A stretch of DNA of 64,000 nt from Flavobacteriales bacterium. Its GTDB lineage: Bacteria; Bacteroidota; Bacteroidia; UBA10329. The position numbers and the translations under genes are program-made. The notes below the pieces were generated by a model that saw only the letters and a program-made list of their open reading frames with translations, did not search any database and was not told where the DNA came from. Shown in pieces: positions 18,627 through 53,771 of the stretch. The stretch covers positions 27,824 to 91,823 of the forward strand of contig WGMW01000003.1 of assembly GCA_016124845.1 (NCBI GenBank), read 5' to 3'. Positions within the stretch are counted from its first letter, which is position 1. Every line of letters starts with the position of its first letter.

Positions 18627-18709
18627 AGATGCTGAAATAAATTCAGCATGACGGCCGAGGTTTGCTGCAACCTTACAAATTCTGTCACCCTGAACTTGTT
18701 TCAGGGTCT
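18627..18709. repeat. Two-hairpin element. It overlaps the stop codon of the large fusion gene.
   Basis: AGATGCTGAAATAAATTCAGCATGACGG at 18627-18654 and GTCACCCTGAACTTGTTTCAGGGTCT at 18683-18709. Confidence 0.7.
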
Positions 18710-21700
18710 ACGCCTCAAAACGAAAGTAACATTCGAGCTTGCCTTGTTCTCCAAGCGTTCTACGCTCAGGTTGAACTGCTCGGCAAAGGAGAGAATGCGC
18801 GCTTCGGGTAGGAATTCCAGTTCGTGTTCGGTCTTGTTGAAACCGAAGAGTTTGGTGCTGAAAACCTCCGTCATTTTGGTCACGCCATGTTTCTGCTGCT
18901 CATCCTCAATACCATCGCGGATGATGATGATACCGCCATCGTTCAGCTTTTCGCCACAGCGTTGCAGCAGCGCTTCCTGTTCGGCCGCAGGGAAATAATG
19001 CAGCACATCTTTAATGATGATACAGTCGGCCGCTTCGGGCGTGAACTGCGTCAGATCCGCCTGCGCAAATGAGATGTTGCCACCGCTGTAATGCGTGTTG
19101 GCCGCCACTTGGATCTTCTCCTCATCGTAATCCAACCCGATCACCTGCCTATCGAACGACTGCATTGCAAGCAGATGCGAGAGATAACCGTATCCGCAAC
19201 CCAGATCGTAGGCTTTTCCTTCTCGCGGCACACGCGAAACAATTTCCTCAAAATTCTTTTCGAGCATCATTTTGATGCGCACGTACCATTCCAGCACAGG
19301 ACCTTTGTACGTGTACAGCCGCTGCACCTTATCCGCAAAGAAATCGGCCGTTTCCACCTCCAGACGCACTTTCTCAAACTCTGATTTGAAATGCCTTGAA
19401 ATAGCCTTGGTGCGTTCGCGGTAACCTGTTCCGTAGCTGGCATCATCGGCAGTAATGCGCGGCAGATATTTCATCGTCATCACGCTCTTCTGAACGGAGA
19501 AATCGCCCTTTCGCAACGCGTGATGAATGCCGTGCAGAATAACGGGTTGAATGTCCAACTGCATCTGCTCGGCCAAGTAGAACGCCCCTTTCTTGAAACG
19601 CCCAATGCGGCCGTCCAAACTGCGCGTTCCTTCAGGAAAAATGAGAATGGAATAACCCTCATCGATCTTCTTGCGGATGTTCTCCAGATCCCACGAGGTC
19701 TCATCCTTGGCGTGGATGAATTCCGCGTAACGGATAAACGCCCCGAAAAAGGGCGAATTCCACACCCAATCGTTCGTAACGAGTAGCAATTTGTTGCTGC
19801 TGCCGATCATCACCATTAGATCCACAAATGAAGCGTGGTTCGCAATGAGAATGGCGGGTTTGTCGAGCGGGTCTTTGTCGATCCAACGCTCCTTCACGTG
19901 CCACATCGTCTTGTAATCCGTCCAGATAAACCAGCTGATAAGCGACAACATCCAATGCTTCTTTTTCTGCGATTTGATGGGCAGCGGAAGCAGCGCGATG
20001 AGGATGACAGTGAGGATGATGCAGCCGATGAAGAACCAGCCGAATGCCAGCGCTGCGCGGAAGAAATCGCGGAGTTCGAGCGGGGAGAAGCCGCGTTTTT
20101 TGCGACTGTCGATGAGGATGTCGTAAAGCAGCGGTTGCAGTGTGAGCGATGCGATGACCACGCAGACCATTCCTGTGACCGAAAGCACCGCGATGGAATG
20201 CAACGCGGGATGCTGCGAGACGATGAGTACACCCGTTCCGATGATGGTGGTAATGGCCGAAAGGATGATGGAGCTGCGGTACGAACGCAGCTTGTCGATA
20301 CCGTATTTGTAGCGGCTCAGGATGCCGTCAGAAACGAAGATGGAATAGTCATCGCCCAGCCCGAAAATGAACGTGGTAACCACCACATTGATCATGTTGA
20401 ATTTGATGTGGAACAGGCCGCAAATGCCGAGGATCCAAACCCAACTGACGGCCATTGGTAGGAAGGTTACGAGCGCCAATTCCAAGCGGCCATAGGTGAG
20501 GAGGAGCACCACGAAAACCAGCCCCGATGTGATGAGCAGCATGAGGTTAAGGTCCTCGCTGACCGTATCCACCAAATTCTGAGCGAGCGAACTACGCGCA
20601 ACGGTTTCCAGTCCTTCCAATTGTTCGGTTTTCTCTGTGAATTCCGCTCGTTTGGCTTTCGGAAGATTGACCGTAGAAACCACATTGTAGCCGTCATCGC
20701 CTTTAAAAATGAACTCGCTGTAGATCGGGTCGTTCAGCAGGAAATCGCGGTAGAATTGCTCATCAGCGACTTCGTAGGTTCGAAACAGGTCTTGATAAAC
20801 AGATAGGAATTGAGGCTGAAAGCCGAGTTCTGTTCCTTGCTCAGAAAGATTGAATTCAATTTCCTCATCTAATTCCGAAACGTATTTGTTCCACGTTTCA
20901 ACGCTTGCTTGGATTTGACTTGGAGTGAGAACAACATCAGTCAGAACCGTAGAGCGGATGGAAGTGTCTTTCAAAGCATTTTGAACTCCAGCACTTTTAG
21001 CAACGGCACTTCCAAGGTTTTCATCAGCAGAAAGCACAAATAGACTTTCGCGGTTGCTGTCTCCGACAATAATGTCCTGAGCGCGCTGAAGATGCTCTGG
21101 GAAGTAGTTGATCTTGTTCAGGTCATTCTCAAATTCGACCTCATCCGCGAAATTCCAAAGGAAGACCGTAGCTCCGATAAGACTGAAAAACAGCAACGCT
21201 TTCCACTTGAAAGCCATGGGTTGCTTTTCCTTCGGTTCGGCCATCGGTTTGAACTTGGCTAACGTGGCAAGATGTGGCAGTCCGAGCAATGCGAAGAAGG
21301 CTGTTCCGATAAGGCTCAAACCTGCAAATGTTCCAAAATCGGCAAGCACTTCGGAATGCAGGAAGTTTAGGCAGAAGAAGGCTGCAACAGTTGTGGCGCA
21401 ACCCAGCAACATGGGCGAACTCACGTCTTTCAGCGTTTCCGAAATGGATCCCGTTTCGCGGTAATGATTGAAGAAGTGGAAGCTGTAATCGATGGCAATT
21501 CCCAGCACAATCGTACCCACTGCAACCGCAATGGCCGAAATAGAACCTTGCCAGAGCGTGATCATCGCCAAGGCGAAAACCAATCCGAAAATGGCAGGGA
21601 TGAAGAATAGAATCGGTAAAAAGAGTTTGCGGAAATAGCCAATGAGCAGCAACAGAATGATCACACCCGCCAGAATACCCACCAGGTTCGTATCCTTCTT

Positions 21701-22492
21701 AATACGTGTGGCATTCCCAACGGCAATCACAGGCCCACCAAAGAGCAGGATTTCCTCTTCGCTCAATTCAGCAGAAACCGTATCAACCGCAGCTTGCAAG
21801 CCTTCCACCAATCTTGTGTTTTCGATGGTTTCCGAAGGTGGATGCGTGGGCTTCACGATCATCAGCAGATACTCGCCATCGGCCGTAAATGTGTAGCCAT
21901 CCACAATTTTGAACGTGCTGCCTTCTTCGAGTTTGCTCAATCGTTTCAGAATGGGCGAACCGAGCTGCAGTGGGTCTTTCATTAGGAACTTCTTGGTTCC
22001 CAAGCTTTCATAGCTGCGAAGACGGTTCAGGGTGGAAGTGAGGCGTGTTTCGATGCCATCTCCCGAAAGGTCTTTGAAAAGCGTATCGATCTCATCCGCG
22101 GTCAGAAAATACGGCAGATCACGTAGGTAATTCCCGTAAGCCTGTTCCAACTTCGCGGCATCCGAACTGAACTGAATGTCCTTGAACAATCCTGTGTCCA
22201 ACTGGTTGAATTGCTCCAAAAGGTTCTCACCGATGGAAACAAGTTCATCACTTGACGATTTCGACAACGGCCCGATCGCTACAACAATGTTTCCAGATAT
22301 AGACGAATTGCGGTATAGATTGTCGTACTTCTTGAACTCCTCAGTCCTCGGAAACGTTTTGGTAATGTCTTCCTCAATGTGGAGCTGGCTCGCTTTCCAG
22401 CCCATCATGACGAAAATCACGGCAAACCCAAACAGCCATAACCATTTGAATTTTAGCGTTTTAAGATAAATAGACTGAAGTATCCGACCCAT
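18701..22492 (-). CDS. Tri-domain fusion: an MMPL/RND-type exporter, a lysophospholipid acyltransferase (PlsC-like) and a SAM-dependent methyltransferase. This architecture is a hallmark of flexirubin/aryl-polyene clusters.
   Basis: About 12 transmembrane segments of MMPL type. NHASFVDLMVMI is the HxxxxD acyltransferase motif and FPEGTRS the second motif. The methyltransferase motif I is LGCGYGYLSHLL. The likely start is MGRILQSIYL at 22492. The track extends to 22633. Confidence 0.7.
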   Translation of the reverse strand: MGRILQSIYLKTLKFKWLWLFGFAVIFVMMGWKASQLHIEEDITKTFPRTEEFKKYDNLYRNSSISGNIVVAIGPLSKSSSDELVSIGENLLEQFNQLDTGLFKDIQFSSDAAKLEQAYGNYLRDLPYFLTADEIDTLFKDLSGDGIETRLTSTLNRLRSYESLGTKKFLMKDPLQLGSPILKRLSKLEEGSTFKIVDGYTFTADGEYLLMIVKPTHPPSETIENTRLVEGLQAAVDTVSAELSEEEILLFGGPVIAVGNATRIKKDTNLVGILAGVIILLLLIGYFRKLFLPILFFIPAIFGLVFALAMITLWQGSISAIAVAVGTIVLGIAIDYSFHFFNHYRETGSISETLKDVSSPMLLGCATTVAAFFCLNFLHSEVLADFGTFAGLSLIGTAFFALLGLPHLATLAKFKPMAEPKEKQPMAFKWKALLFFSLIGATVFLWNFADEVEFENDLNKINYFPEHLQRAQDIIVGDSNRESLFVLSADENLGSAVAKSAGVQNALKDTSIRSTVLTDVVLTPSQIQASVETWNKYVSELDEEIEFNLSEQGTELGFQPQFLSVYQDLFRTYEVADEQFYRDFLLNDPIYSEFIFKGDDGYNVVSTVNLPKAKRAEFTEKTEQLEGLETVARSSLAQNLVDTVSEDLNLMLLITSGLVFVVLLLTYGRLELALVTFLPMAVSWVWILGICGLFHIKFNMINVVVTTFIFGLGDDYSIFVSDGILSRYKYGIDKLRSYRSSIILSAITTIIGTGVLIVSQHPALHSIAVLSVTGMVCVVIASLTLQPLLYDILIDSRKKRGFSPLELRDFFRAALAFGWFFIGCIILTVILIALLPLPIKSQKKKHWMLSLISWFIWTDYKTMWHVKERWIDKDPLDKPAILIANHASFVDLMVMIGSSNKLLLVTNDWVWNSPFFGAFIRYAEFIHAKDETSWDLENIRKKIDEGYSILIFPEGTRSLDGRIGRFKKGAFYLAEQMQLDIQPVILHGIHHALRKGDFSVQKSVMTMKYLPRITADDASYGTGYRERTKAISRHFKSEFEKVRLEVETADFFADKVQRLYTYKGPVLEWYVRIKMMLEKNFEEIVSRVPREGKAYDLGCGYGYLSHLLAMQSFDRQVIGLDYDEEKIQVAANTHYSGGNISFAQADLTQFTPEAADCIIIKDVLHYFPAAEQEALLQRCGEKLNDGGIIIIRDGIEDEQQKHGVTKMTEVFSTKLFGFNKTEHELEFLPEARILSFAEQFNLSVERLENKASSNVTFVLRRRP

Positions 22493-22642
22493 CAGAAAAG
22501 ATTGGCAGTCAATGATAGGGAACAAAATTGATTTAACGTTAAATTTGCGCCCCCTGAGAACGGGCTCACCCAAAACTCGCACGTCATAGGACCAACACTT
22601 ACACTCGATCAGTTTTTCCGCGTTGTTGTACAAGGAGAAAAA

Positions 22643-24127: not shown

Positions 24128-24182
24128 GGTTGATTGAGTTGACAAAGAGATAAGTTGACAAGAGATAGAGTTTACATGTTAA

Positions 24183-25011: not shown

Positions 25012-25141
25012 TGAAGTTTACAGAGTTTATAAAGTTGATTAAGAGATAAGATTTGCAGAACGCGGTTCCCCCTTTACAAAGGGGGTGTCGAGAAACGAGA
25101 CGGGGGATTTAATTAGTTGAAAAAGAGTGAATACATTTTAT

Positions 25142-25520
25142 AGCCACAGAAACACAGATTTACACAGAAAGACACAGAGAACATTCTCTGTGAAAACCTC
25201 TGTGCTTTCTGCGCCTCTGTGGCTAAACGATTTTCTCGGTGCATCTCCATTTCTCAGATTTTCTCTGTGCAATAATCCTCTTTGCATCTCTGCGTCTCTG
25301 CGTGAGATAAAAAGAACAGACATGTTAAAGCCACAGAAACACAACTTGTCCCGACACTTCGGGAGATTTACACAGAATGAAAAAGGAGTTTTTTCTGTGA
25401 AAACCTCTGTGCCTTCTGCGCCTCTGTGGCTAAACGATTTTCTCGGTGCATCTCCATTTCTCAGATTTTCTCTGTGCAATAATCCTCTTCGCGCCTTTGC
25501 GCCTTTGCGAGAGGTAAATT
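25142..25520. repeat. Tandem duplication of about 2 x 190 bp of the palindromic element plus its 3' extension.
   Basis: 25142-25223 and 25331-25433 both read AGCCACAGAAACACA...TTCTGTGAAAACCTCTGTGC(C/T)TTCTGCGCCTCTGTGGCT. Each is followed by AAACGATTTTCTCGGTGCATCTCCATTTCTCAGATTTTCTCTGTGCAATAATCCTCTT. The ORFs 25127..25558 (+) and 25138..25479 (-) are translations of this repeat. Confidence 0.75.
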
Positions 25521-25554
25521 GGTCTCTGCGTGAAACAAAAAATATTTCTCAAGC

Positions 25555-26781
25555 ATGAATAACCGAGTGGTGATAACTGGTCTGGGAATTCATTCTTGCC
25601 TTGGCCAAAATGCCGAGGAAGTGACGGCTTCGCTCCGGGACGGAAAATCAGGTATCATCTTCGACCCTGTGCGCAAGGAAATGGGTTTCCGTTCTGCGCT
25701 GGTCGGTGATGTGCCCATGCCCGAATTGAAAGCAGAACTCGGTCGTAAAGACCGCAAGAACATGCCAGAGGAAGCGCTCTACGCCTTCGTTTCTACAAAA
25801 CAGGCGTTGGAAATGGCAGGCATGACCCAAGAGTTCATCGACCAGAACGAGGTCGGTATTCTCTTCGGAAACGATAGTACCGCAGGTGCGGTCATAGAAG
25901 GCGTGGATCTGCTTCGCGAGAAGAAGGACACCACACTTATCGGTTCAGGAAACATCTTCCAGAGCATGAACTGCACCGTAACCATGAACCTCAGCACCAT
26001 CTTCCGCCTCAAAGGCGTCAACTTTACGGTGAGTGCGGCATGCGCCAGCGGTTCGCATTCCATCGGTATGGGCTTCCTGCTCATTAAAATGGGATTGCAG
26101 AAACAGATCATCTGCGGAGGCGCGCAAGAGGTCAACCCGTATGCATTCGGAAGTTTCGATGGCATCGGAACCTTCTCCACCTATGAGGACACCCCAACCG
26201 AAGCCTCACGTCCTTTTGATAAGACACGCAACGGACTGGTACCAAGTGGTGGCGCAGCAACCGTCATTCTCGAAAGTTTGGAAAGCGCACAGGCACGTGG
26301 AGCCAACATCTTGGCCGAAGTGGTCGGTTACGGCTTCAGTTCCAACGGAGAGCACATCTCCAACCCCAATGAAGAAGGGCAGGTGCGCGCGCTCAAAATG
26401 GCCATGGAAATGGGCGGAGTAAAACCCGAAGAGGTCGATTACATCAACGCCCACGCCACCAGTACACCCGTTGGCGATGCGTTCGAAGCACAGGCCATCC
26501 ACAGCGTATTCGGAGACAACGGCCCATTGGTAAGCAGCACCAAAAGCATGACGGGCCACGAGTGCTGGATGGCAGGCGCCTCAGAGGTCGTCTATTCGCT
26601 ACTTATGATGCAGAACGGTTTCGTGGCACCCAACATCAACTTCTCAGAGCCAGATGAAGCCTCGGCCAAGCTCAACATCCCATCAAAAAGTGTGGATAAG
26701 GAATTGAACACGATCCTCTCAAATTCGTTTGGGTTCGGAGGAACAAACTCAACGTTGATAATTCGTAAGTTCGCGCCCTGA
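25555..26781 (+). CDS. Beta-ketoacyl-ACP synthase (KAS I/II-like).
   Basis: VSAACASGSHSIG is the active-site Cys. NAHATSTPVGD and TGHECWMAGASE carry the His/His residues. GFGGTNS is at the C-terminus. Confidence 0.8.
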   Translation: MNNRVVITGLGIHSCLGQNAEEVTASLRDGKSGIIFDPVRKEMGFRSALVGDVPMPELKAELGRKDRKNMPEEALYAFVSTKQALEMAGMTQEFIDQNEVGILFGNDSTAGAVIEGVDLLREKKDTTLIGSGNIFQSMNCTVTMNLSTIFRLKGVNFTVSAACASGSHSIGMGFLLIKMGLQKQIICGGAQEVNPYAFGSFDGIGTFSTYEDTPTEASRPFDKTRNGLVPSGGAATVILESLESAQARGANILAEVVGYGFSSNGEHISNPNEEGQVRALKMAMEMGGVKPEEVDYINAHATSTPVGDAFEAQAIHSVFGDNGPLVSSTKSMTGHECWMAGASEVVYSLLMMQNGFVAPNINFSEPDEASAKLNIPSKSVDKELNTILSNSFGFGGTNSTLIIRKFAP

Positions 26782-27089: not shown

Positions 27090-27151
27090 TGTCACCCTGA
27101 ACTTGTTTCAAGGTCTAATTCAATAGATGCTGAAACAAGTTCAGCATGACG
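27090..27151. repeat. Two-hairpin element at the left edge of the island.
   Basis: GTCACCCTGAACTTGTTTCAAGGTCT, then AATTCAATAG, then ATGCTGAAACAAGTTCAGCATGACG. This is the reverse complement of the copy at 45585-45644. Confidence 0.75.
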
Positions 27152-27305: not shown

Positions 27306-27454
27306 GTTGCATGCCACTCTATGGTGATTGCATGCCAGCCGTTCGGTGAGGCATACCACCGAGACGCTGAGGCATCCCAGAAAGACGCGGAGGCATACTG
27401 GAAAGACGGGATTGCATACCGCAAAGACGGGGAGGCATGCCAGCTATTGGTGGA
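27306..27454 (+). repeat. Seven degenerate direct repeats of 21 bp, iteron-like.
   Basis: GGTTGCATGCCACTCTATGGT, GATTGCATGCCAGCCGTTCGGT, GAGGCATACCACCGAGACGCT, GAGGCATCCCAGAAAGACGCG, GAGGCATACTGGAAAGACGGG, ATTGCATACCGCAAAGACGGG, GAGGCATGCCAGCTATTGGTGG. Confidence 0.6.
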
Positions 27455-27547
27455 TGAAAACCGCTTTTTGACAGTTGAGAATGGGTTTTCTTTCAGATTA
27501 TTGTTAAGTGCAAGAAATAATTTGGTAAGCCCGTTAAGAAACTAGAT

Positions 27548-30500
27548 GTGAGCTTTCAGAAGGAGGATATGACCTTTTGGAAAGAGGGTATGGGGTTTTG
27601 GAAGGTGCATATTAATTCATCTTATGTTCACTTTTCCCATAATAGTTTGCATATTGTCAAACCATTGATCTACAATACTTCACCGGCAATGAAAACCACA
27701 CTATTTCATATTCCGCCCATACGACTCACAGCGGCAGTGCTTGAAAAGAAATTGAAAGAAGAGATTGAAACAGAAAACAAGTTTCAAAATGGGGTTTGGT
27801 CAGTGCAAACGAAAGAACATGGATTGCTTGTGGACCTTTCCCAGTTACGTTGGGTTGAGTTCGGGGCTGCTGCTCAATTGTTGTTGTTAATTGAAAGTGC
27901 CTTAAAGCAAGATGTGTCTGTGGATATTGCAATGCCTCTGGATCAACCTTCTTCCGGTGAGAATAAGAAAATGTTAGAAATCCAAATTTCCAATCCAAGG
28001 GTTCATCGACAGATGCAAAATGTGGTTGGCCAACGTAGAGTTGCAAGGAACTTTCTGTATCACATACAGTTTGAACGAGCGGCTATGTGTTACCATGTTG
28101 AAACTGGGGATGTACGAATAATTCGAAAATGCGATTTCCGTTCTGGAAAACCACTGATTTATGATGAGCAAAACGTTCTTGAGCGCGCCAATGTTACGGA
28201 ATCTGATTTCGAATCGAAAAAGACTGATGAAATAAGCTATAAGGCAATTGTACCATTGACTTGGGTTCAAGAGTTGGAAGATAGTCTTGAGGTGAAGAAT
28301 CTAAAAGAGTTTTTGCACGACATTATCGGCAATGAGGAGAAAGGGTTGGCCAAAATTGATGCGCGCTCGATTACAGGTGTTGTGCTAAATGAGTTGGTGA
28401 AAAATTTGAAAGAGCATGCCAACCCATTAGGTGAGAGTTCAACTACCCATGCATTACTTGGGGTAATTCTATTGCCGAACTCAGTGATTGATGAGAACTC
28501 AGTTGGAAACAATGAAAGTTTTTTTAGCTGGCTAAAAGAGGGATATGACCATCATCTCGAGATTTATTTCGGAGATACTGGTCAAGGAGTTGTCAATTCT
28601 CTTAAGAAACAATTTGCCTTATCTGAACAGTCATCGACAATGACTGATGATAATATAGTTCTTTGGGCGTTTGATAAATGGTATAGTAGGAAATCAGAAA
28701 GATTTAGAGGGACTAAAGGATTGTACCGTATTCAGCGAATCGTGAATAAGTACGATGGGTTAATGTCGATTCGCTCTGCTAGGGTTGAAGCCGGTTATCA
28801 AAAAGGTGGATACGATGGCCCTGCGAGGAAGTTTTCCGCAAATGAGTTAGGGTACATGCCGGGTTCTTTCATCAAAATGACCATGGTGCCTTATAGGGAA
28901 CTCGCTAAGGTCAATCCGCCTTTAACAACACCTACAGGAAAAACGCCAGGAGTGATAGTTGAGCGTGTTGAGATCACTGCCAATGATTTACGAGTAGATA
29001 ACTTTTTTGAAAAGCAACACATCGAGCTTGAAGATAGATTCAAGAGCATTAAGGATAGAACTGCGACCGTCTTTATTTTTTTGGATTTCAAACTTGAATC
29101 TATTCAACCAATTTCTGAGAAACTGGTGGAGGATATTCTCAATTCATTAACTCAGTTAAGGCATCCGAATCCATTGGTTGTTTATGGTTTTCCTGAGCAA
29201 TATGGATATGAGAAACTAGAAGGATGCACCGATTCCGTGAATGAGTACTTACGAAGAACATTGGTGGAAAGCGGTCTAAATTTCAACGAGGAAGATTCTA
29301 CAATTCAAGATCCTGAATCTTTCGATAGCGAATTCGAGAATATTGCAGATCCGATTCTGGTTTTAACCAAGGAGGGAGAGCATTCGTGGTGCGGCATCTA
29401 CCAAGATGAAATCATGGAACTTCTTAAGGTCCTTTCTTCCGAAGGAAAGGTGGAAGCTACGTCATACCTCTCTAATAAAGGGGGTAATGAAATTCTTGAA
29501 ATAAAGAAGTTTGTGAATAATGACCCGCTAGTTCATCAATATGCAAATGTGGATGGGAAGCTAATATGGGAACTGCTTTATGGTCTTAACGGTTTGATTA
29601 GATACTATGGAGACAAGTTGATTCAGGAACTTGAGAAACAAGTTTCAGAACAAAAAAAGGGCTATTGCGATATTAGTCCAAATCTGAGTTGGGTTAAGCG
29701 ATGGGTTAATATGGAAACCTTACTTGAATTTGAAGAAGATGGTTTCGGTATTGCTTTGACCTTGTTGTTCAAAAGTAGGCATGGAAATGCGCGTATAGAC
29801 TTGAAATCAATTAAAATTCTCGTTGATAATGAAGAGGCTAGAAAAATAGCGAAACCGTTCTGCAAATGGATGGGGATAGATGTTGATAAGATTGTTGTTC
29901 TAAGTGATGAAGTTGATAGAAGAATACCTCGAAGATCCCCCATTTTCAGCAGAGGGGATCAAGTGTTGATCTTAACAACTCTAATCTCCTCTTTTGAAAC
30001 GGTCAATCGCTTGGCGAAGACGGTGTACAGGGGACTTGCCCATCCGATTGCAATCCTCGGTTTAGTACAGCCCAAAACCCAAGGTTCAGTGAATATATGG
30101 GGACATGATGAACTTGAGATTCTGTCTTTGGCTGAATACGATTTATCTGTTACTCCAATGATGGAATCAATTAAGAGTGGAGTCAAGTTCATTGAGCCGT
30201 ATAGTTATGAATCGATAATAGCGAAGACAAAAGAGGCCTTGATATCAACGGACTTAGGGCATCGCAATCAAGATCTTGATGAGGTACTTGAAATGGTGGA
30301 GAAGGGAAGTGCATTGCATTTTAGTCATGTTGGTAAGAATGCAGGAAGACATTTCACTTTTTACCTAAGTGCAATTGATTTTCTAGCAAAAAATGATGAA
30401 GTCATTATGCAGCGTTACTATGATGAGATTGACAGTTGGGCCGAAAGTCAAGGGATAGAAGACTTTGAAATTTGGACACCAACACCGGTACTCAAGGTTA

Positions 30501-32701
30501 ATCACCTAGAACAAATCTCAAAGCACTTGGAGGAAAGATATCACAAGTATAGTGCTGAATTGGCGGTTTGTGTTGCAAGAAAAGTTATCAAGAGAAACAA
30601 CGTACTTGGGAACTGGGTGTTTTATAACGAGAAAATGCACCGTGGAAGTAAATCCGACAATGTCTTGATAATTGATTGGGGTAGTTTGAATGGAACCACG
30701 GTTCAGCAAATGGTCAATTTTGCTGCTTCGGAGGCAAAGACCAACATTAAGGTTTGCATCCTGTTCTCTCAATTATGGAAGCCTGAGCAAGAGATGCTTG
30801 AGAAAATTGTTCAGGTAAAGCGCAATCCTAGGGTTGAAAATATTCCAGTTGACATATTTACAAATAGCGTCAAAGTTGCTGAGTCGGAGTCGGTGGAAGA
30901 CCTTTCGTCAACCGTGTCGGTTAAATTCCTTTACAGGCTGCCATTGCGTTATTTTGAAATGGAGGAATGCCCGGTATGTGCCCAAATTGAAGCTTTAAAG
31001 CAGTTTGAGGTTCCCAATAAATTGATCAATGATTTTAATGTTTCCCGAAAGGAACGACTTCAAATACGAGATAGGACAACAGAGGTCAATCATAGACCAA
31101 GGGATTTTTACGGTGAGCAACTAACGGGGTCAATCATCTCTGAGATGATGAAGTTCAAGGTTTTGCTTGATGAAGCCTTGTTGTCAACAGAAAAGCGATT
31201 CTTGGTTGTGGAGCATCTAAGGAAACTGGAAGAAGGTTTCCAAGTGGGAAAAATTCAAGGCAATACGGTCGTCCAAGCCGTCATTTATTTTTTGTCGGTT
31301 GAAAAGATATGGATGCACCGCCCACCTTTGGAGTTTCGAATTGCGCGCGATTTAATTGCTCAAATCAGCTTAAAGATTGCTTTAGCTGAGTCTACTCCAA
31401 TGCAACAGCAACTAAAGACTCGATCAAATGTCGTCCGAATAAAGTTTGCTGCGGTAACCGTACTGCGTTCTGCGGATAAAGTTCTGTTTATTGAGAACTT
31501 GGGAGGTATTTTTAGAAGTGCTTTTATTGAAGAAAAGTTTTCCGAAGCAATCGTTCAGAATCTGTTTTATCACTTGCATTCTTTCATTACGCGAGATTAT
31601 CATTCCAGTCAAGAATACTATGATACAATCATCCAAGAGTTGAATGACATAAGGCTGATAGAGGGTATTTCAGATTCTATGCAAGATGCAACTCAATTTT
31701 TAGAACTTATAACCGAAAAACGAAAAACTGGACTTAGAATTCCTTTTGATTCTAAACTGGCGGTAGTTAAAAGTTTAATGGTGCAGAGAAAAAGGAACTT
31801 TGACAGAAAGTACAACCATTATGACATAATTGAACGCTACCGCGCACTTAGCCCAGCATATAGGGGGAAAATTGAGAATTTTATTCAAGGAGTAAACAAT
31901 GATCAGTCGTTTGTGACAACAGATTACTTCCAAAGTTGGTGTCAGAAATTGATGACCGACTGGAAATATGTTGCACAATACCTGAATGATGTGATCTTCG
32001 GTCACCTGGAAAAAATCAAAGACCTCTTTGATAGTAAGAGTTTTAATGTCTATTACATGTTTAGGAGGGATTTGGAAGAGGCAATGCGGCCTGGAGTTGT
32101 TATTGGAAGTAATGATGACTTTACAATTTTGGTCAAACTTATTCAGGATGAACCCAGTGTTTTATTAGAAAAAAATGTATTTGAAAAATACATTGGTCTC
32201 TTAGAAAGCATGTATGTAAATTATTTGAGGTTTGACAAGCGTCAGTTGGAGAACAACTCAGTCTTAAATACTATTTTGTCTCAATTGAATGTTGATTTGG
32301 TTGATAATGTCAATCACGCATTGGAATCATTCAAGGCAATATGTAAGACTGGGCTCGACTACAGTTTTAGTAGGGATGAAGCAACTATTTATCAGGCGTT
32401 TATTTTTGAACCCCTTCTAAAGAATCTGCTTCAACACATTTTCGAAGATAATATTCACGAAAAGGATGAAGATGAACAGTCGCAAACCCCACTTAGTGTT
32501 CAGGTTTCGCTTAAACAGATTGATAATTCATTTGAACTTCTGATTGAGAACTCGGTATCAGATCCAGAACAAAAGAACAACCTGATGGGTGGACTGTCTA
32601 AGTGGCGAGAACAAATATTGGATTTTGATGGAGAGTTGAAGTGGGGTTTTAATAAAGATAGGACCAAATTTTATCGACAGATTATTTTATTGAAATTTTA
32701 A
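27548..32701 (+). CDS. Giant multidomain protein of 1717 aa (1670 aa from the ATG at 27689). It has an N-terminal GHKL/histidine-kinase-like ATPase domain, two PRTase-like Rossmann domains and a long alpha-helical C-terminal region. No family assignment.
   Basis: GHKL N-box GVVLNELVKNLKEHANP, G1 box EIYFGDTGQGVV and G2 box GTKGLYRIQRIV, with canonical spacing. PRTase-like cores: GDQVLILTTLISSFETVNRLAKTV...IAILGLV, and SDNVLIIDWGSLNGTTVQQMVNFAASEAKTNIKVCILFS. The second aligns residue-for-residue with the HGPRT core [21 protein letters not shown]...VKVASLL. A single CPVC motif is present. GC is about 38%, against 50-55% in the flanks. Confidence 0.7.
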   Translation: MSFQKEDMTFWKEGMGFWKVHINSSYVHFSHNSLHIVKPLIYNTSPAMKTTLFHIPPIRLTAAVLEKKLKEEIETENKFQNGVWSVQTKEHGLLVDLSQLRWVEFGAAAQLLLLIESALKQDVSVDIAMPLDQPSSGENKKMLEIQISNPRVHRQMQNVVGQRRVARNFLYHIQFERAAMCYHVETGDVRIIRKCDFRSGKPLIYDEQNVLERANVTESDFESKKTDEISYKAIVPLTWVQELEDSLEVKNLKEFLHDIIGNEEKGLAKIDARSITGVVLNELVKNLKEHANPLGESSTTHALLGVILLPNSVIDENSVGNNESFFSWLKEGYDHHLEIYFGDTGQGVVNSLKKQFALSEQSSTMTDDNIVLWAFDKWYSRKSERFRGTKGLYRIQRIVNKYDGLMSIRSARVEAGYQKGGYDGPARKFSANELGYMPGSFIKMTMVPYRELAKVNPPLTTPTGKTPGVIVERVEITANDLRVDNFFEKQHIELEDRFKSIKDRTATVFIFLDFKLESIQPISEKLVEDILNSLTQLRHPNPLVVYGFPEQYGYEKLEGCTDSVNEYLRRTLVESGLNFNEEDSTIQDPESFDSEFENIADPILVLTKEGEHSWCGIYQDEIMELLKVLSSEGKVEATSYLSNKGGNEILEIKKFVNNDPLVHQYANVDGKLIWELLYGLNGLIRYYGDKLIQELEKQVSEQKKGYCDISPNLSWVKRWVNMETLLEFEEDGFGIALTLLFKSRHGNARIDLKSIKILVDNEEARKIAKPFCKWMGIDVDKIVVLSDEVDRRIPRRSPIFSRGDQVLILTTLISSFETVNRLAKTVYRGLAHPIAILGLVQPKTQGSVNIWGHDELEILSLAEYDLSVTPMMESIKSGVKFIEPYSYESIIAKTKEALISTDLGHRNQDLDEVLEMVEKGSALHFSHVGKNAGRHFTFYLSAIDFLAKNDEVIMQRYYDEIDSWAESQGIEDFEIWTPTPVLKVNHLEQISKHLEERYHKYSAELAVCVARKVIKRNNVLGNWVFYNEKMHRGSKSDNVLIIDWGSLNGTTVQQMVNFAASEAKTNIKVCILFSQLWKPEQEMLEKIVQVKRNPRVENIPVDIFTNSVKVAESESVEDLSSTVSVKFLYRLPLRYFEMEECPVCAQIEALKQFEVPNKLINDFNVSRKERLQIRDRTTEVNHRPRDFYGEQLTGSIISEMMKFKVLLDEALLSTEKRFLVVEHLRKLEEGFQVGKIQGNTVVQAVIYFLSVEKIWMHRPPLEFRIARDLIAQISLKIALAESTPMQQQLKTRSNVVRIKFAAVTVLRSADKVLFIENLGGIFRSAFIEEKFSEAIVQNLFYHLHSFITRDYHSSQEYYDTIIQELNDIRLIEGISDSMQDATQFLELITEKRKTGLRIPFDSKLAVVKSLMVQRKRNFDRKYNHYDIIERYRALSPAYRGKIENFIQGVNNDQSFVTTDYFQSWCQKLMTDWKYVAQYLNDVIFGHLEKIKDLFDSKSFNVYYMFRRDLEEAMRPGVVIGSNDDFTILVKLIQDEPSVLLEKNVFEKYIGLLESMYVNYLRFDKRQLENNSVLNTILSQLNVDLVDNVNHALESFKAICKTGLDYSFSRDEATIYQAFIFEPLLKNLLQHIFEDNIHEKDEDEQSQTPLSVQVSLKQIDNSFELLIENSVSDPEQKNNLMGGLSKWREQILDFDGELKWGFNKDRTKFYRQIILLKF
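27635..27655 (+). promoter_or_regulatory. Candidate Bacteroidetes-type -7 promoter element upstream of the giant ORF.
   Basis: ATAATAGTTTGCATATTG is about 35 bp upstream of the ATG at 27689 and loosely resembles the TAnnTTTG -7 consensus. This is weak evidence. Confidence 0.2.
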
Positions 32702-32705
32702 GTCC

Positions 32706-34355
32706 ATGGATTCATTTGCAATATATTTTTTTGACGATGTAAAGGCTGATCAAAGGCTCATCAAGGATTATATAGAACCATTGTTTGATGGTTTTTCTCC
32801 CTCGAGAACTGTTAGTCCAAAGATAGAGGCGGATATTGAGAAGTTTGAATCAGCATTGTTGGAAGCCCAGAGGATTGACTTGGTCATATTGGATATTATA
32901 GAGAAGCAGGTGGATGCCAAAGGCGATGTAAAACTTGAAAAAGCTGGATTGAAACTCCTAAACAAGCCATTGATAACGGAGAAACTTCGAAGCTTAAATA
33001 CACCTGTTCTAATTTATTCATCAGATGATGATAGTATTCTCGCAGCAAGACAAATAGCTCAAGACCAAGGGATTAAAGTTGGTGAACTTCGCAAGGAATT
33101 TAGTGCAAAAACAGGAGCATTTCAAACTGTAAGAAAGGCAATTGAGGGTATAGTAGATTTTGGTGAACTGTTAGGCAGGTATAAAATAATTTTGACTCCC
33201 AACTTAAGGACACTATCATTGAATGATAGCGTTGGAGAGTCAGTGATTTCAAGTATTCTGGCGAAGTATTCAAGTTTTAGTTCGACCATTCCTGAAAATG
33301 GAAGTATAACTATTAAAGCTCTTACCCCAGGTTGGTCTGGTGCTTATATCTTCTTGGCAGATTTTGGGGCATCAAAACATGTTCTGTTCAAATTGTCGAA
33401 CGATTTACAGGAACTTGGAAAAGAGTTTAAGAATGTTGAGGACTATTATGAACCTCTTAGGTCAAAAACAACGGTCAAAGTTGGCAAAGTATCTCCGAGT
33501 AAACTTCAGTACAAAGGTTGGTCTGCTCTTTCATTTGAATTTGCCTCCGAAACAAATTCCTGTTTTAATTGGTTACAGACCAATCCTACTGATACTAAGG
33601 TTAAGAAAAACCTTAGGACGATTTTTTCTGACACCTGTTTAATGGGACTTTATAAAGTTACTGGAGAGTCAGAGTTGGATTGTAAAAGTACCTTGGATTT
33701 AGTACTGCTAGGACTTTCAAGAAACAAGAAGTTGCAAGTCAAAGCAAGCATAGAAGAGTTACATGGGGTTTTGCTTAACTATAACGCAGATTACGAAAAT
33801 TCATTGCTGCCGCTTGTTTCAATCATCAAGGAAAATGGGTCTTTTGACATGTTGGCTAATGAGCATATGGATCCAGGATTTAAAGCTCAAATATGCCACG
33901 GTGACCTTCATGCTAACAATTTATTGATAGATGCTAATGATGATCCGATTCTTATCGATGCGGGAAGCATAGGTTACGGTCATTCAACCTCAGATGTATG
34001 TCTTTTGATGGTTGATTTATTAATTAGGGGTATTGATCATGGTAAATTGGCGTATTTTGACCTAACGGCTATAGGAGAACATTTTAAATTGTTGGAAAAA
34101 GTTATTGACCAGAAAAAAATCGATTCAAACACAGATTCCAATAAAGGAATCTGTAGAGCGATAAATTACCTAAACCTGAACGTCAATAACTTGGTGGAAA
34201 TTCCCTTTGAACCTTGGGAGTTTTCATTGAACTTGGCGGTTGAATTTGCGAAAGCGGCATGTCGGAACACTTTTCCACCAAGTAAAAGAGTTGTGGCGCT
34301 TTTGGCAGCTGCAAGGGCAATTGAGGAGGCAAATAGTCGATTTAAATCACCTTAG
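32706..34355 (+). CDS. Receiver (REC)-like domain fused to an APH/protein-kinase-like kinase.
   Basis: N-terminal AIYFFDDVKAD...IDLVILDII...TPVLIYSSDDD...ELRK shows the acidic pocket, phospho-acceptor Asp, Ser/Thr and Lys in the order expected for CheY-like receivers. The C-terminal half has a Gly-rich loop LTPGWSGAYIFLADFG and VLFKL Lys. The Brenner catalytic motif is ICHGDLHANNLLID. ILIDAGSIGYG is the DFG equivalent. Confidence 0.65.
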   Translation: MDSFAIYFFDDVKADQRLIKDYIEPLFDGFSPSRTVSPKIEADIEKFESALLEAQRIDLVILDIIEKQVDAKGDVKLEKAGLKLLNKPLITEKLRSLNTPVLIYSSDDDSILAARQIAQDQGIKVGELRKEFSAKTGAFQTVRKAIEGIVDFGELLGRYKIILTPNLRTLSLNDSVGESVISSILAKYSSFSSTIPENGSITIKALTPGWSGAYIFLADFGASKHVLFKLSNDLQELGKEFKNVEDYYEPLRSKTTVKVGKVSPSKLQYKGWSALSFEFASETNSCFNWLQTNPTDTKVKKNLRTIFSDTCLMGLYKVTGESELDCKSTLDLVLLGLSRNKKLQVKASIEELHGVLLNYNADYENSLLPLVSIIKENGSFDMLANEHMDPGFKAQICHGDLHANNLLIDANDDPILIDAGSIGYGHSTSDVCLLMVDLLIRGIDHGKLAYFDLTAIGEHFKLLEKVIDQKKIDSNTDSNKGICRAINYLNLNVNNLVEIPFEPWEFSLNLAVEFAKAACRNTFPPSKRVVALLAAARAIEEANSRFKSP

Positions 34356-34391: not shown

Positions 34392-35321
34392 ATGATGGAA
34401 AATTTTGCTGACCGACTAATACGTTCAGTTGAACGTAAAGCTACTCCGTGTATAGTTGGGCTGGACCCCCGTTTAGAACTCATTCCAGATTTTATTCTTA
34501 CAAATGCTCAGAAAGGGTCGCTGAATGAGGCTATAGCTTCAGCAATCACCACATTTCATACAATCATATTAGACTCAATCCAAGACCTTGTTCCTTGTGT
34601 AAAACCTCAAATTGCCTTCTATGAGCAATATGGCCTACCGGGGATGATTGCATTTGAGAACACAGTTAAGGCTGCAAAGGAGCGAGGACTTCTTGTGATT
34701 GTGGATGCCAAAAGAAATGACATTGGTTCAACCGCAACTGCTTATGCAAATGCGTTTCTTGGTGCCTCGGTTGTGTTTGGAGAGCGTAAACCAATGTTTG
34801 ATGTTGATGCTGTGACGGTAAATGGATACATGGGTGAGGAAACTTTGGTGCCGTTTGTAAATGTTTGCAAGGATTATGGAAAGGGAATTTTTGTCCTTGT
34901 CAAAACATCAAACCCTGGTTCAGGTGATGTTCAGGACCAAATCTTGGAGGAGTCGAAGCTTCCGCTTTATGTAAAGATGGCACGAACGGTTAATAGGTTA
35001 GGAATGGATATGGTCGGTAAAAACGGTTACAGTTCGGTAGGAGCGGTCGTAGGGGCAACTTATTCGGAAGCAGCAAAAGAATTGCGCGCTGAAATGTACA
35101 ACAACGTTTTTTTAGTGCCAGGCTATGGAGCACAAGGAGCCTCTGGAAAGGATGTCGTACATAATTTCAATTCAGATGGTCTGGGAGCCTTAATAAATGC
35201 ATCTCGAAGTATCACTTTTGCTGGTTATGATAAGGATGTTTCGATGATAGAATTTGAAAGTATTATTCGCCAGAATACGGAGGATATGGTGGTAGATGTT
35301 CGAAATAGTTTGAATAGTTAG
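34392..35321 (+). CDS. Orotidine-5'-phosphate decarboxylase, type 2 (PyrF family-2 architecture).
   Basis: PCIVGLDP. VIVDAKRNDIGSTA matches the DxKxxDIxxT signature. VTVNGYMG, VLVKTSNPGSGDVQ, GAVVGAT and LVPGYGAQG are all type-2 OMPDC hallmarks. Confidence 0.7.
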   Translation: MMENFADRLIRSVERKATPCIVGLDPRLELIPDFILTNAQKGSLNEAIASAITTFHTIILDSIQDLVPCVKPQIAFYEQYGLPGMIAFENTVKAAKERGLLVIVDAKRNDIGSTATAYANAFLGASVVFGERKPMFDVDAVTVNGYMGEETLVPFVNVCKDYGKGIFVLVKTSNPGSGDVQDQILEESKLPLYVKMARTVNRLGMDMVGKNGYSSVGAVVGATYSEAAKELRAEMYNNVFLVPGYGAQGASGKDVVHNFNSDGLGALINASRSITFAGYDKDVSMIEFESIIRQNTEDMVVDVRNSLNS

Positions 35322-35327
35322 TCTGAG

Positions 35328-35981
35328 ATGTCGATTAGGTCGATTGTTCCGAAGACAAGGATTGTTTTAGCGTTAGACTGTGAAACTGAGGAGGAATGTG
35401 TTCGAGTTTTAAACAGTTGCTACGAACAAATAGATTTAATCAAAGTTAATTACCCTCTTATTTTATCTGAAGGTCTCCCAATTATTGGCAGGCTTAAGAA
35501 AGTATTTGGCAAGCCAATTATTGCAGATTTCAAAGTTGCTGATGCACCAGTAACGAATAATCGAATCGTGAAATTGGTCAAAGATGCTGGTGCTGATTCA
35601 ATAATGGTTCATGCTATAGTAGGTACTGATGCGATTTATGAAATAAAGCAAATTGGAGGTGGCGAATTGGAAATAATAGTGGTAACGGAATTAACTCATC
35701 CTGGAGGTCTGGAGTTTACAAGAAAGTACGCAGAGGAGGCGGCAAAACTTGCATTGGAGATGGGGTGTTTGGGAATTCAAGCTCCTGGTACTCGGCCGGA
35801 ACAAATTGAAAAACTCAGGCAAATTGTAGGTCAGGACATGATTATCGTGGCTTGTGGTGTAGGAGCGCAGGGGGGACAGTATTCCGAAGTTATTAAAGCT
35901 GGAGCTGATTACGCTATCATTGGAAGGGCGATTTATGAATCAAGTAATCCGTCCTTAGCCATTGAATCTATTATTACTTGA
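35328..35981 (+). CDS. OMP-decarboxylase-superfamily TIM-barrel protein, HPS/KGPDC/type-1-OMPDC-like.
   Basis: RIVLALDCETEEE is the ALD start. PIIADFKVADAPVT matches DxKxxD. SIMVHAIVG. IIGRAIYES is the GR-I phosphate loop. Confidence 0.6.
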   Translation: MSIRSIVPKTRIVLALDCETEEECVRVLNSCYEQIDLIKVNYPLILSEGLPIIGRLKKVFGKPIIADFKVADAPVTNNRIVKLVKDAGADSIMVHAIVGTDAIYEIKQIGGGELEIIVVTELTHPGGLEFTRKYAEEAAKLALEMGCLGIQAPGTRPEQIEKLRQIVGQDMIIVACGVGAQGGQYSEVIKAGADYAIIGRAIYESSNPSLAIESIIT

Positions 35982-36139: not shown

Positions 36140-36380
36140 TTAAATAAGATCGCCACTGCCTCCGCTTCCCGTTAGCGTTTGCAACGCGTGCTTTCTTACC
36201 TGAAAACCGCCATCAGTCCTAACCGTCTGATAACCAGCGTTCTCAGTCCACTCCCGATCTATCTCCGTCTTCTCCCGATCATTCTCGGTCGAGTCCCGAT
36301 CATTCTCGGTCGAGTCCCGATCTATCTCGGTCAAGCCCCGATCTATCTCGGTCAAGCCCACGATCTATCTCAGTCTTGCC
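36140..36380. repeat. Left copy of a large inverted repeat. It has about 110 bp of unique sequence plus an array of six 21-bp tandem repeats (CCCGATCWWTCTCGGTCRAGY).
   Basis: Six tandem units at 36253-36380. 36205-36252 is homologous in reverse complement to 53997-54040. ORFs 36140..36361 (-) and 36179..36481 (+) are 7-aa-periodic translations of the array. Confidence 0.7.
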
Positions 36381-39312: not shown

Positions 39313-39534
39313 ATGTTGGTCATGAGCACGAAAGAACTGATTTCGAAAATAGACGCGCTTCCTCCTGAATTCCGAAGGGAAGTGGAAGATTTCATTGACT
39401 TTCTGAAGCAGAAATTGGAACGTGAGGAAACGAAGAAACCTCTTGAAAAACGACAGTTCGGCTATGCCAAGGGCTTTTTCAAAATGTCTGACGATTTCGA
39501 TGAACCATTGGAGGATTTCAAAGATTATATGTGA
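39313..39534 (+). CDS. Antitoxin (DUF2281-like) paired with the downstream PIN toxin.
   Basis: 73 aa. Its end overlaps the start of the downstream PIN gene by 4 bp. Confidence 0.5.
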   Translation: MLVMSTKELISKIDALPPEFRREVEDFIDFLKQKLEREETKKPLEKRQFGYAKGFFKMSDDFDEPLEDFKDYM

Positions 39535-39917
39535 TGAATATTCTCCTTGATACGCACGCGTTTGTTTGGTTCATGAACGCGGATGGTAAGTTTCCTAAGC
39601 ATCTTATCAAGGACATTGAGAATTTTGAGAACACCTGCTATTTGAGTGTTGCCAGCCTTTGGGAAATGGCCATCAAGGTAAATCTTGGTAAACTTGAACT
39701 GGTTGATGATTTCGAGAACATTCTGGAATTCTGTTCTTCCAACAGGATTATTCTTCTGCCCATTGAATTCGAAGACACACGGTCGGTAATTGGTCTTCCA
39801 GACCATCATCGCGACCCTTTCGATAGAATGTTAGTGGTTCAGGCCAATCGGCAAGAGGCAATTCTCCTTACCAAAGACCGCATGTTTGACCGCTATGAAG
39901 TTCAGACCCGTTGGTAA
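39531..39917 (+). CDS. vapC: PIN-domain ribonuclease toxin (VapC).
   Basis: ILLDTHAFVWF carries the first acidic residue, SLWEMAIK the second, and the later DPFDRMLVVQA the third. Confidence 0.65.
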   Translation: MMNILLDTHAFVWFMNADGKFPKHLIKDIENFENTCYLSVASLWEMAIKVNLGKLELVDDFENILEFCSSNRIILLPIEFEDTRSVIGLPDHHRDPFDRMLVVQANRQEAILLTKDRMFDRYEVQTRW

Positions 39918-53003: not shown

Positions 53004-53771
53004 TTGAGTTCAATCGCAAATCGTCAATTGCAAATTGTCAATCGCAGATCATTGAACTCAGTAGAAGTCTGTTTCTCTCCACCGTTGTTCGACCTTTTCG
53101 CGAGGAAGGGAAGCATTGTGGTGGTGGTTGACATCTTCCGTGCGACCTCGGCCATGGTCACGGCTTTCCATCATGGGGCGGCCAGCATCATTCCGGTTTC
53201 AACCATTAAAGAGGCGAAGGACTACAAGGACAAAGGTTTCTTGGCAGGAGGTGAGCGGAACGGGGAAGTGGTGAAGGGATTTGAGTTCGGGAACAGTCCG
53301 TTCTCGTATATGAACGAAGGCATCAAGGGCCGTGAGATTGCGCTGACGACCACCAACGGCACCCGCGCCATCAACATTGCCAAGAAGGGAGCCGATACGG
53401 TTCTCATTGGTTCATTTCTGAATCTTCAAGCGTTAGCTGATCACATTCAAACCCAAGGCAAGGATGTGGTGATCTTCTGCGCGGGTTGGAAGGACCGTTT
53501 CAATATGGAGGATAGCCTTTTTGCGGGTGCACTCACCAATTTGCTACTTACCAGCGGCAAGTTCTATTCGGATTGCGACAGCGCGAATGCCAGCAGTCTG
53601 GTTTACCGCACGGGCCGCAAAAATCTGATGACCTTTTTGAAGAGTTGTTCTCATCGGAAGCGTTTGGCGCATCTTCACCTTGAGAAGGATGTGGAATACT
53701 GTCTTCAGCGGGATGTAACAGACGTGATCCCTGTGCTGCGAGATGGGAAGTTGGTGCGATTGACCGACTAA
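53004..53771 (+). CDS. comB: 2-phosphosulfolactate phosphatase (ComB family).
   Basis: VVVVDIFRATSAMVTAF and TTTNGTRAI are present. The start codon choice is uncertain. Confidence 0.7.
   Translation: MSSIANRQLQIVNRRSLNSVEVCFSPPLFDLFARKGSIVVVVDIFRATSAMVTAFHHGAASIIPVSTIKEAKDYKDKGFLAGGERNGEVVKGFEFGNSPFSYMNEGIKGREIALTTTNGTRAINIAKKGADTVLIGSFLNLQALADHIQTQGKDVVIFCAGWKDRFNMEDSLFAGALTNLLLTSGKFYSDCDSANASSLVYRTGRKNLMTFLKSCSHRKRLAHLHLEKDVEYCLQRDVTDVIPVLRDGKLVRLTD

Follow-up and report, generated by a model that had tools for sequence, protein, structure and literature searches.

Among described bacterial systems, the closest to the protein treated here are ShosT (PMC12961424) and the effector of retron-Eco11, type III-A3 (PMC12746101), which are phosphoribosyltransferase (PRTase) effectors that are toxic by binding or depleting phosphoribosyl pyrophosphate (PRPP). 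Depletion of PRPP by such effectors has been shown only recently, for these two systems, and in ShosT the acidic pair D331/D332 is essential (PMC12961424). A second group of relatives comprises the partner switches SpoIIAA-SpoIIAB and RsbV-RsbW, built from a STAS protein and a GHKL kinase, with Rv1364c of M. tuberculosis as a fused version. The locus analyzed here lies in a stretch of 64,000 nucleotides from a Flavobacteriales bacterium (assembly GCA_016124845.1, contig WGMW01000003.1), hereafter called the window, and encodes a giant protein in which elements of both groups are joined: a STAS-GHKL fusion, two tandem PRTase folds and a histidine kinase (HK)-like core, followed by a separate gene for a receiver-kinase. 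That the giant protein represents a real conserved family with a multi-domain anatomy is well supported. A role as the large subunit in a mobile conflict module of two genes, most likely one acting against phages or by abortive infection, is assigned a probability of roughly one half.

The open reading frame (ORF) of the giant protein is uninterrupted over 27548-32701 on the plus strand, on which all genes and domains of the system are located, and comprises 1,717 codons when counted from a GTG codon. An earlier account made from the letters of the DNA, referred to below as the sequence-only reading, had adopted this GTG. Translation very probably begins 141 nt farther downstream, at ATG 27689, giving a gene at 27689-32701 (GC 0.392) and a product of 1,670 aa, because the identical (100%) database protein P0001 from a Flavobacteriales metagenome-assembled genome has a length of 1,670 aa, the N-termini of 28 homologues align to the Met encoded at 27689, and the first 47 codons of the GTG-started frame overlap a 21-nt tandem array. 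With numbering from this ATG, all previously quoted motifs were recovered: the N box LNELVKNLKEHA (aa 233-244), the G1 box FGDTGQG (aa 294-300) and the G2 box GTKGLYRIQRIV (aa 341-352) of the N-terminal GHKL domain, and the segments VLILTTLISSFETVNRL (aa 759-775) and NVLIIDWGSLNGTTVQQM (aa 991-1008) of the two PRTase-like domains.

Full-length homologues (n = 29) range from 1,577 to 1,731 aa at 20-33% identity, and none of them (0/29) is interrupted, an outcome that speaks against the pseudogene considered in the sequence-only reading. Eleven residues, E235, N239, H243, D296, G298, G300, G344, G998, Q1028, C1094 and C1097, are invariant in all 29, and across 136 full-length representatives drawn from the wider family they remain nearly so. 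Since this invariance is maintained at 20-33% identity, the GHKL and PRTase motifs are not chance matches.

Searches with existing models were far less informative. In scans of the whole giant protein, no Pfam, NCBIfam or PADLOC model reached its cut-off, and neither the family profile nor a profile of the PRTase module gave a significant match to PDB sequences; the only in-register PDB matches, to a PRTase-related protein, the STAS protein MlaB and an HK catalytic and ATP-binding (CA) domain, were weak. When the 29 members were scanned one by one against Pfam, all matches were sub-threshold (STAS in 5/29; HATPase_c, HATPase_c_5 and PRTase_2 in 2/29 each).

Structures were predicted with AlphaFold2 (AF2) in two overlapping halves, from an alignment of 28 homologues. 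The half covering aa 1-860 reached a pLDDT of 74.8 and a pTM of 0.62, and that covering aa 700-1670 reached 81.7 and 0.78, respectively. Together with fold searches, these models upheld the central claim of the sequence-only reading, namely that a GHKL ATPase and two PRTase-like domains are joined in one protein, an unrecognized combination. The absence of a P-loop was likewise confirmed, as the protein contains no Walker A motif. No description was found in the literature of a combination of PRTase, STAS and kinase domains, or of OMP (orotidine 5'-monophosphate) decarboxylase with GTP cyclohydrolase in defence. The component folds are all known, and both PRTase-based and kinase-based defence systems already exist.

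The protein begins with a STAS-like domain (27716-28093, aa ~10-135; motif DLSQLRWVEFGAAAQ at 27833-27877), which was detected by fold search and had been missing from the earlier domain list. At the position equivalent to the phospho-serine of DS(S/T)G, the window protein reads V-E-F-G-A-A, with F-G at the site, and the family shows [hydrophobic]-[G/S/N], as judged by an alignment made by eye against SpoIIAA and RsbV motifs. Directly behind it in the same chain is a SpoIIAB/RsbW-type GHKL (Bergerat) ATPase/kinase domain (28244-28888, aa ~186-400), so that the STAS domain occupies the place of the cognate partner of such a kinase.

The N box (28385-28420), G1 box (28568-28588) and G2 box (28709-28744) of this domain follow each other in canonical order and spacing, as the sequence-only reading had stated, and their residues E235/N239/H243, D296-x-G298-x-G300 and G341-T-K-G344 are invariant in the 29 homologues. 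The Bergerat alpha/beta sandwich was present in the predicted structure and in the fold search. Since all ATP-binding boxes are kept, the domain is predicted to bind ATP. A HATPase_c-type Pfam model gave no match in the window protein and only sub-threshold matches in 2 of the 29 members and in protein P0210. The Bergerat fold and, for the first PRTase-like domain, the PRTase fold proposed earlier were confirmed by structure; neither HATPase_c nor Pribosyltran matched above threshold.

Compared with SpoIIAA-SpoIIAB and RsbV-RsbW, the giant protein shares the STAS and GHKL pair, here fused at the start of 1,670 aa, an arrangement for which Rv1364c provides a precedent. It differs from them in having no conserved STAS phospho-Ser/Thr and no linked sigma factor or PP2C phosphatase; neither a sigma-factor target nor a PP2C phosphatase was found among the conserved neighbours of the giant gene, of which the receiver-kinase gene is the only one. 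The GHKL domain is followed by an alpha/beta region with two sub-domains (28946-29758, aa ~420-690), for which a Pfam scan gave no match.

The first PRTase-like domain (29756-30268, aa ~690-860) adopts the PRTase core fold in the predicted structure. Its top structural neighbours were orotate PRTases and UMP (uridine monophosphate) synthase, and the PRTase-fold regulators PurR (1o57_A) and PyrR (1w30_A) were among the matches. The equivalent of the PRPP loop, VLILTTLISSFET at 29963-30013, aligned in register with the PRTase-related protein 1vch in a weak sequence match. In the window this loop reads VLIL-TT-LI-SSFET, with the acidic pair lost (TT), whereas ..T-D-II-SSGET is the consensus of the family and 70/136 representatives have one Asp; the loop thus deviates from the PRPP-loop pattern of four hydrophobic residues, an acidic pair and xxTTGxT. 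The segment had been described as a second, more degenerate PRTase copy, which agrees both with the fold in the model and with the replacement of the acidic pair by TT.

The second PRTase-like domain (30296-30964, aa ~870-1090) has the strand and helix order canonical for a PRTase in the AF2 model. It carries an invariant hairpin, H880..R887-H888-x-T890 (30326-30364), an invariant Q1028, and a PRPP loop, NVLIIDWGSLNGTT at 30659-30712, of the form D996-[W/F]-G-x-x-(T/N)-G-x-T, in which the Asp is kept in 131/136 representatives, the G and TG..T are conserved, and the second acidic residue is replaced by W/F. Pfam Pribosyltran gave only weak matches (E 0.0013-0.18), in register with the loop. 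The strand and helix order and these weak matches are indirect evidence, on which a PRTase fold is plausible for the second domain. The sequence-only reading had claimed a position-for-position correspondence with the type I PRTase core; the D/G/TG/T residues of the loop are indeed in register, but the acidic pair is D-W, and the claim was overstated to that extent.

With regard to catalytic residues, the acidic pair is TT in the first copy and D-W in the second, although the second retains D-x-G-x-x-T-G-x-T. Because the pair is incomplete, it is doubtful that they act as PRTases, and their role may be confined to ligand binding. When aligned by hhalign, the two PRTase-like domains matched each other in register at the PRPP loop; for the N-terminal GHKL and the C-terminal domain, the register was kept at the G2 box. 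Neither alignment was significant, and an internal duplication therefore cannot be shown from sequence.

Like ShosT and the retron-Eco11 effector, the giant protein has a type-I PRTase fold in a mobile, defence-island-associated system. Unlike them, it lacks PADLOC-detectable similarity, carries two tandem PRTase folds between two Bergerat domains, and has a receiver-kinase as its partner in place of the DprA-like ShosA or the reverse transcriptase with msDNA. Compared with orotate PRTase (OPRT) and UMP synthase (PyrE-PyrF), the PRTase fold is similar, but identity is 9-13%, Pfam Pribosyltran remains below threshold, the acidic pair is incomplete, and the domains are built into a giant signalling protein encoded on a mobile island.

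Directly after the second PRTase-like domain, a C-P-x-C motif (30968-30979, aa 1094-1097) is invariant in the 29 homologues, its cysteines C1094 and C1097 being kept in 135/136 and 134/136 representatives, respectively. It is followed by a helical region (30986-32023, aa ~1100-1445), modelled mostly with a pLDDT above 80 and containing the near-invariant H1295 and H1377, of which H1377 lies in a low-confidence loop. The C-terminal 600 aa had been described as helical without a recognizable motif. They were found to end in a helical bundle and a second Bergerat (CA) domain, which form an HK-like core (32036-32698, aa ~1450-1670) of helices resembling a dimerization and histidine phosphotransfer (DHp) domain and a CA domain at aa ~1535-1670, with the CA fold present in both the predicted structure and the fold search.

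The C-terminal CA domain keeps the N-box Asn and the G2 'GGL', and its G1 DxGxG is lost in all members (ENSVS / NKGTK / YDSTD; in the window IENSVSD at 32537-32563). A phospho-acceptor His, for which the sequence-only reading had suggested a check, was not conserved across the family on the DHp-like helix, where an H box would precede the N box by ~110 aa. In the C-terminal half, only two His residues are near-invariant, H1295 and H1377, and these precede the N box by ~300 and ~215 aa. Because the H-box His is absent and the G1 box is lost, the C-terminal core is most likely a pseudo-kinase that serves as a docking or regulatory module. It resembles the cores of HK853, VanS, ThkA and the mitochondrial PDK/BCKDK, from which it is distinguished by these same two losses.

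The partner gene (32706-34355, 549 aa) starts 4 nt after the stop codon of the giant gene and combines a receiver (REC) domain with a kinase domain resembling APH and methylthioribose (MTR) kinase. Both this gene and the linked OMP decarboxylases had been overlooked before. Across 27 distinct related loci, a partner was found directly downstream wherever the sequence extended 2 kb or more past the giant gene, often overlapping its stop. A word-based homologue search with the partner recovered only the partner itself; the other partner sequences were taken from the giant-gene loci.

In the receiver domain (aa 1-~135), the phosphorylation pocket is conserved among the 7-12 partners compared: D10-D11, D63, a Ser/Thr after the beta-4 strand, and a Lys. 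A 12-partner profile searched against solved structures returned receiver domains (best E 9.6e-7, 6ont), and Pfam Response_reg scored 26.6 against a cut-off of 30.2 in one partner. The kinase domain (aa ~200-549) has the invariant residues G209-x-S-G-A, K229, E240, H398-G-D400-x-H402-x-x-N405 and I-D418-x-G, the loop of the window partner being H398-G-D400-L-H402-x-x-N405. Pfam APH matched the partner above its cut-off (29.1 against 23.2 bits), and the partner profile matched MTR kinase 2olc with an E of 2.3e-5.

Pfam TCAD9, the Ternary complex associated domain 9, scored 31.0 on the window partner, and 34.4 at best among all partners, against a cut-off of 40 bits. TCAD9 is a member of the vWA-MoxR ternary conflict systems, and no vWA-MoxR components were present among the giant-gene neighbours looked at. 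For the partner, PADLOC returned only a chance-level SduA match (E 0.021). With APH and MTR-kinase-like members of the eukaryotic-like kinases (ELK), the partner shares the GxSGA loop, the Lys, the Glu, HGDxHxxN and IDxGG; it differs from these and from TCAD9, which stays below cut-off, in the fusion of the kinase to an N-terminal receiver.

The four genes of the window system, namely the giant gene, the partner and two OMP decarboxylase genes, have a GC content of 0.38-0.42, compared with 0.48-0.53 in the flanks, and form a low-GC island that interrupts a flexirubin-type pigment cluster (aromatic amino-acid lyase, ketosynthase (KS), acyl carrier protein (ACP), thioesterase, acyltransferase). 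When one genome each of 185,579 species was searched, the giant family was found in 16 loci, most of them in Bacteroidota and the rest in Ignavibacteria, Chlorobium, Balneola, Cloacimonadales, Acidobacteriota and Gemmatimonadaceae. A scan of IMG/VR viral contigs yielded no relatives of the giant protein, and there is thus no sign of a phage-borne family.

In 1.84 billion representative proteins, a profile of the tandem PRTase module matched 317, 200 and 111 clusters at E<=1e-3, 1e-10 and 1e-30, respectively. Full-length matches were ~1,550-1,750 aa long and had the module at the same position, and on these grounds the module seems to exist only in the giant-protein architecture. Shorter matches are probably fragments, and the family as a whole may be put at about 200-300 clusters.

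Around the giant gene in the first ten loci, mobility and defence genes were frequent. They comprised PIN toxin-antitoxin genes, a relaxase, MobC, a type IV coupling protein, tyrosine integrases, a VapE-type primase, Mrr, RelA/SpoT, a Dam-type methyltransferase (MTase), a Lamassu-like LmuB_C locus, Shedu SduA_C, type ISP restriction-modification (RM), GmrSD and Fic. In 17 further loci, whose neighbourhoods supplied 117 ORFs, these included three integrases, AbiEii-type AAA_21 ATPases, N6-MTase/Eco57I, GajA of Gabija (5e-260), type I and IIG RM, PDC-S06/S23, AriA-like proteins and MADS components. At some loci, the pair is carried in integrative or conjugative elements.

Two clusters beside giant homologues are candidate conflict loci. 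In Dyadobacter arcticus (L003, 1285-6657), a CHAT protease and a 912-aa TPR protein are encoded next to the homologue, and at locus L008 (3711-7990) a Lamassu-like cluster of CTD7, MC3 and LmuB_C is present.

Several points weigh against the reading as a conflict module. For the defence role, the arguments come from neighbourhood and mobility alone, and at some loci only housekeeping neighbours were found. No model of PADLOC-DB v2 matches the giant protein. The acidic pair that is essential in ShosT is absent from the first PRTase-like domain and halved in the second, and across the family there is no conserved phosphorylatable Ser/Thr at the STAS phospho-serine position. The C-terminal core has no H-box His and its CA domain no adenine-binding G1 Asp, and about 600 aa (420-690, 1100-1445) have no assigned fold.

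A mechanism can nevertheless be outlined. The fused STAS-GHKL unit would act as an ATP/ADP-dependent partner switch, like SpoIIAA-SpoIIAB and RsbV-RsbW. The two PRTase folds would form an intramolecular pseudo-dimer, the counterpart of the obligate PRTase dimer, with PRPP or a pyrimidine nucleotide such as orotate/OMP as the ligand or the substrate. Docking of the partner's receiver domain would be the task of the pseudo-HK core, which would thereby control the partner kinase. Upon a trigger, for example when a phage upsets the nucleotide or energy pools, the system would consume PRPP or alter pyrimidine nucleotides, and the partner kinase would phosphorylate a sugar, a nucleotide or a protein target, so that the infected cell stops growing. 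Where OMP decarboxylases are linked, they might drive an OPRT-type reaction, which is reversible, in the forward direction and so turn it into an effective PRPP sink; alternatively, they might determine how much of the sensed ligand is present.

In its most specific form, this amounts to an undescribed immune system. The giant protein would read the nucleotide and energy state through the STAS-GHKL switch and the PRTase pseudo-dimer and signal by the pseudo-HK to a receiver-gated small-molecule kinase, and optional OMP decarboxylase and GTP cyclohydrolase II would make or destroy a pyrimidine-type nucleotide that serves as the immune signal or the abortive-infection toxin. So detailed a proposal is tentative and, taken as a whole, rather unlikely to be correct.

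The accessory enzymes bear on this proposal as well as on its alternatives. In the window, the partner gene is followed by a type 2 OMP decarboxylase (34392-35321, 309 aa; TIGR02127, 276 bits against a cut-off of 110.6; DAKRNDIG motif) and a type 1 OMP decarboxylase (35328-35981, 217 aa; NF010386, 210.6 against 208 bits; Pfam OMPdecase 2.6e-42; DFKVAD motif). The catalytic D-x-K-x-x-D is kept in both (VDAKRNDIG and ADFKVAD), and judging from these motifs and model scores, both are genuine enzymes and clade-specific accessory genes. In the database, the proteins most similar to the 309-aa enzyme share 62-67% identity with it and are encoded on contigs with giant homologues, which argues that the linkage is not a coincidence.

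Three arrangements of such genes were observed. They lie downstream of the pair in the window and at loci L010, L027 and L028, are partly fused at L029, and lie upstream at L051/L052. L028 has the same four-gene layout as the window, its OMP decarboxylases being 67% and 68% identical (68% for the fourth gene against the 217-aa enzyme), and L027 has a type-2 enzyme only. At L010 (14597-16876), GTP cyclohydrolase II (GCH-II), OMP decarboxylase and a short-chain dehydrogenase/reductase (SDR) are encoded by separate genes. At L029 (8001-9614), where the giant homologue is distant (24% identity), a GCH-II::OMP decarboxylase fusion (P0143, 537 aa) followed by an SDR adjoins the giant/partner pair, and at L051/L052 the trio stands upstream of the giant gene (L051, 5716-7900). 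Accessory genes of this kind occur at about one quarter of the loci, OMP decarboxylase is absent from about three quarters, and most loci have the two core genes only. No correlation was seen between accessory genes and the variant of the PRTase loop.

These enzymes could indicate that the system regulates or performs pyrimidine/PRPP metabolism, the OPRT-like pair and the OMP decarboxylase forming a UMP-synthase-like salvage module that is tuned to the energy state by the kinase domains. The orotate PRTases and UMP synthase among the structural neighbours of the first PRTase-like domain, the genuine OMP decarboxylases linked at several loci and the existence of PRTase-fold regulators such as PurR and PyrR are consistent with such a role. 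A salvage enzyme would, however, hardly be expected in a family that is so rare (185,579 species genomes yielded 16 loci), so patchily spread across phyla and borne by low-GC islands and mobile elements, without OMP decarboxylase in three quarters of its loci and with the PRTase acidic pair missing, and a two-kinase architecture of 1,670 aa is out of proportion for it. We consider this explanation unlikely.

A similarly low probability is given to a biosynthetic module for a nucleotide-derived small molecule, such as a modified nucleotide signal, a toxin or a cofactor, in which GCH-II, SDR and OMP decarboxylases would handle intermediates and the PRTase pair and the sugar-kinase-like partner would perform ribosyl-phosphate chemistry. 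GCH-II, OMP decarboxylase and SDR do recur together, with the first two fused at L029; the partner is closest to small-molecule kinases (MTR kinase, APH), and the island of the window is inserted in a pigment biosynthetic cluster. Against this, the GC content of the island is unlike that of the pigment cluster, homologues were not found in such clusters, and the core pair stands by itself at most loci. If the product were an immune signal or a toxin, this explanation would overlap with the reading as a conflict module.

Still less probable is an ordinary large two-component system, with the giant protein as a cytoplasmic sensor HK that phosphorylates an adjacent regulator with kinase output. 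It is favoured by the position of the HK-like C-terminal core next to a gene with a canonical receiver whose pocket is fully conserved. Against it, no His is conserved at a DHp position, the near-invariant H1295 and H1377 being ~300 and ~215 aa away from the N box, and the G1 DxGxG is lost throughout; the one intact Bergerat domain lacks a DHp and belongs to the SpoIIAB/RsbW Ser-kinase/anti-sigma type. A non-functional origin, whether as a chance ORF, as a pseudogene or as a decaying remnant whose motifs match by chance, might be suspected from the lack of Pfam, NCBIfam and PADLOC matches at cut-off and from an ORF that begins in repeat DNA, and is refuted by full-length conservation at 20-33% identity with invariant motif residues in dozens of genomes of several phyla, by confident multi-domain AF2 models and by the conserved operon partner.

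Additional features were observed in the window. A single family of 21-nt tandem arrays (CCCGATCT[A/T]TCTCGGTC) is represented at 36241-36375 and 53915-53996, the two arrays being oppositely oriented, and other 21-nt arrays are located shortly before the giant gene and over the GTG annotated as its start (27348-27438, 27545-27592). The idea that the 21-nt arrays flanking the island mark its borders was rejected, as the same repeat family occurs at 53915-53996. Further short-period intergenic arrays were found at 24132-24176 and 53010-53050, and a 17-nt array of 9.5 copies at 60756-60916. Immediately behind the ACP gene, an inverted repeat at 27091-27150 (27 nt, 81% complementary, 6-nt loop) resembles a terminator and marks the left edge of the inserted island.

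A 128-nt direct repeat (25184-25311 / 25391-25518, 92% identity) is present between the FabG-like and KS genes. The 143-aa ORF at 25127-25558 consists of this repeat and is therefore unlikely to be a gene. A PIN-domain (VapC-like) gene (39531-39917, plus strand; Pfam PIN 5.5e-13) is located inside the pigment cluster and may be a second small mobile insertion. The flexirubin-type cluster also includes a 1,310-aa fusion of an MMPL transporter, an acyltransferase and a SAM-methyltransferase (18701-22633, minus strand), which is divergent from the aromatic amino-acid lyase gene.

If the giant protein and its partner do form a defence system, its architecture, with two Bergerat domains, tandem PRTases, a receiver-gated kinase and optional pyrimidine enzymes, is seen nowhere else, and it would tie partner-switching and two-component logic to nucleotide-directed immunity. 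The loci would also offer a concrete, testable case for the recruitment of OMP decarboxylase and GTP cyclohydrolase II by immune loci. Even if the role is not defensive, a family of about 200-300 clusters that has no Pfam, NCBIfam or PADLOC model gains a domain map and a list of residues.

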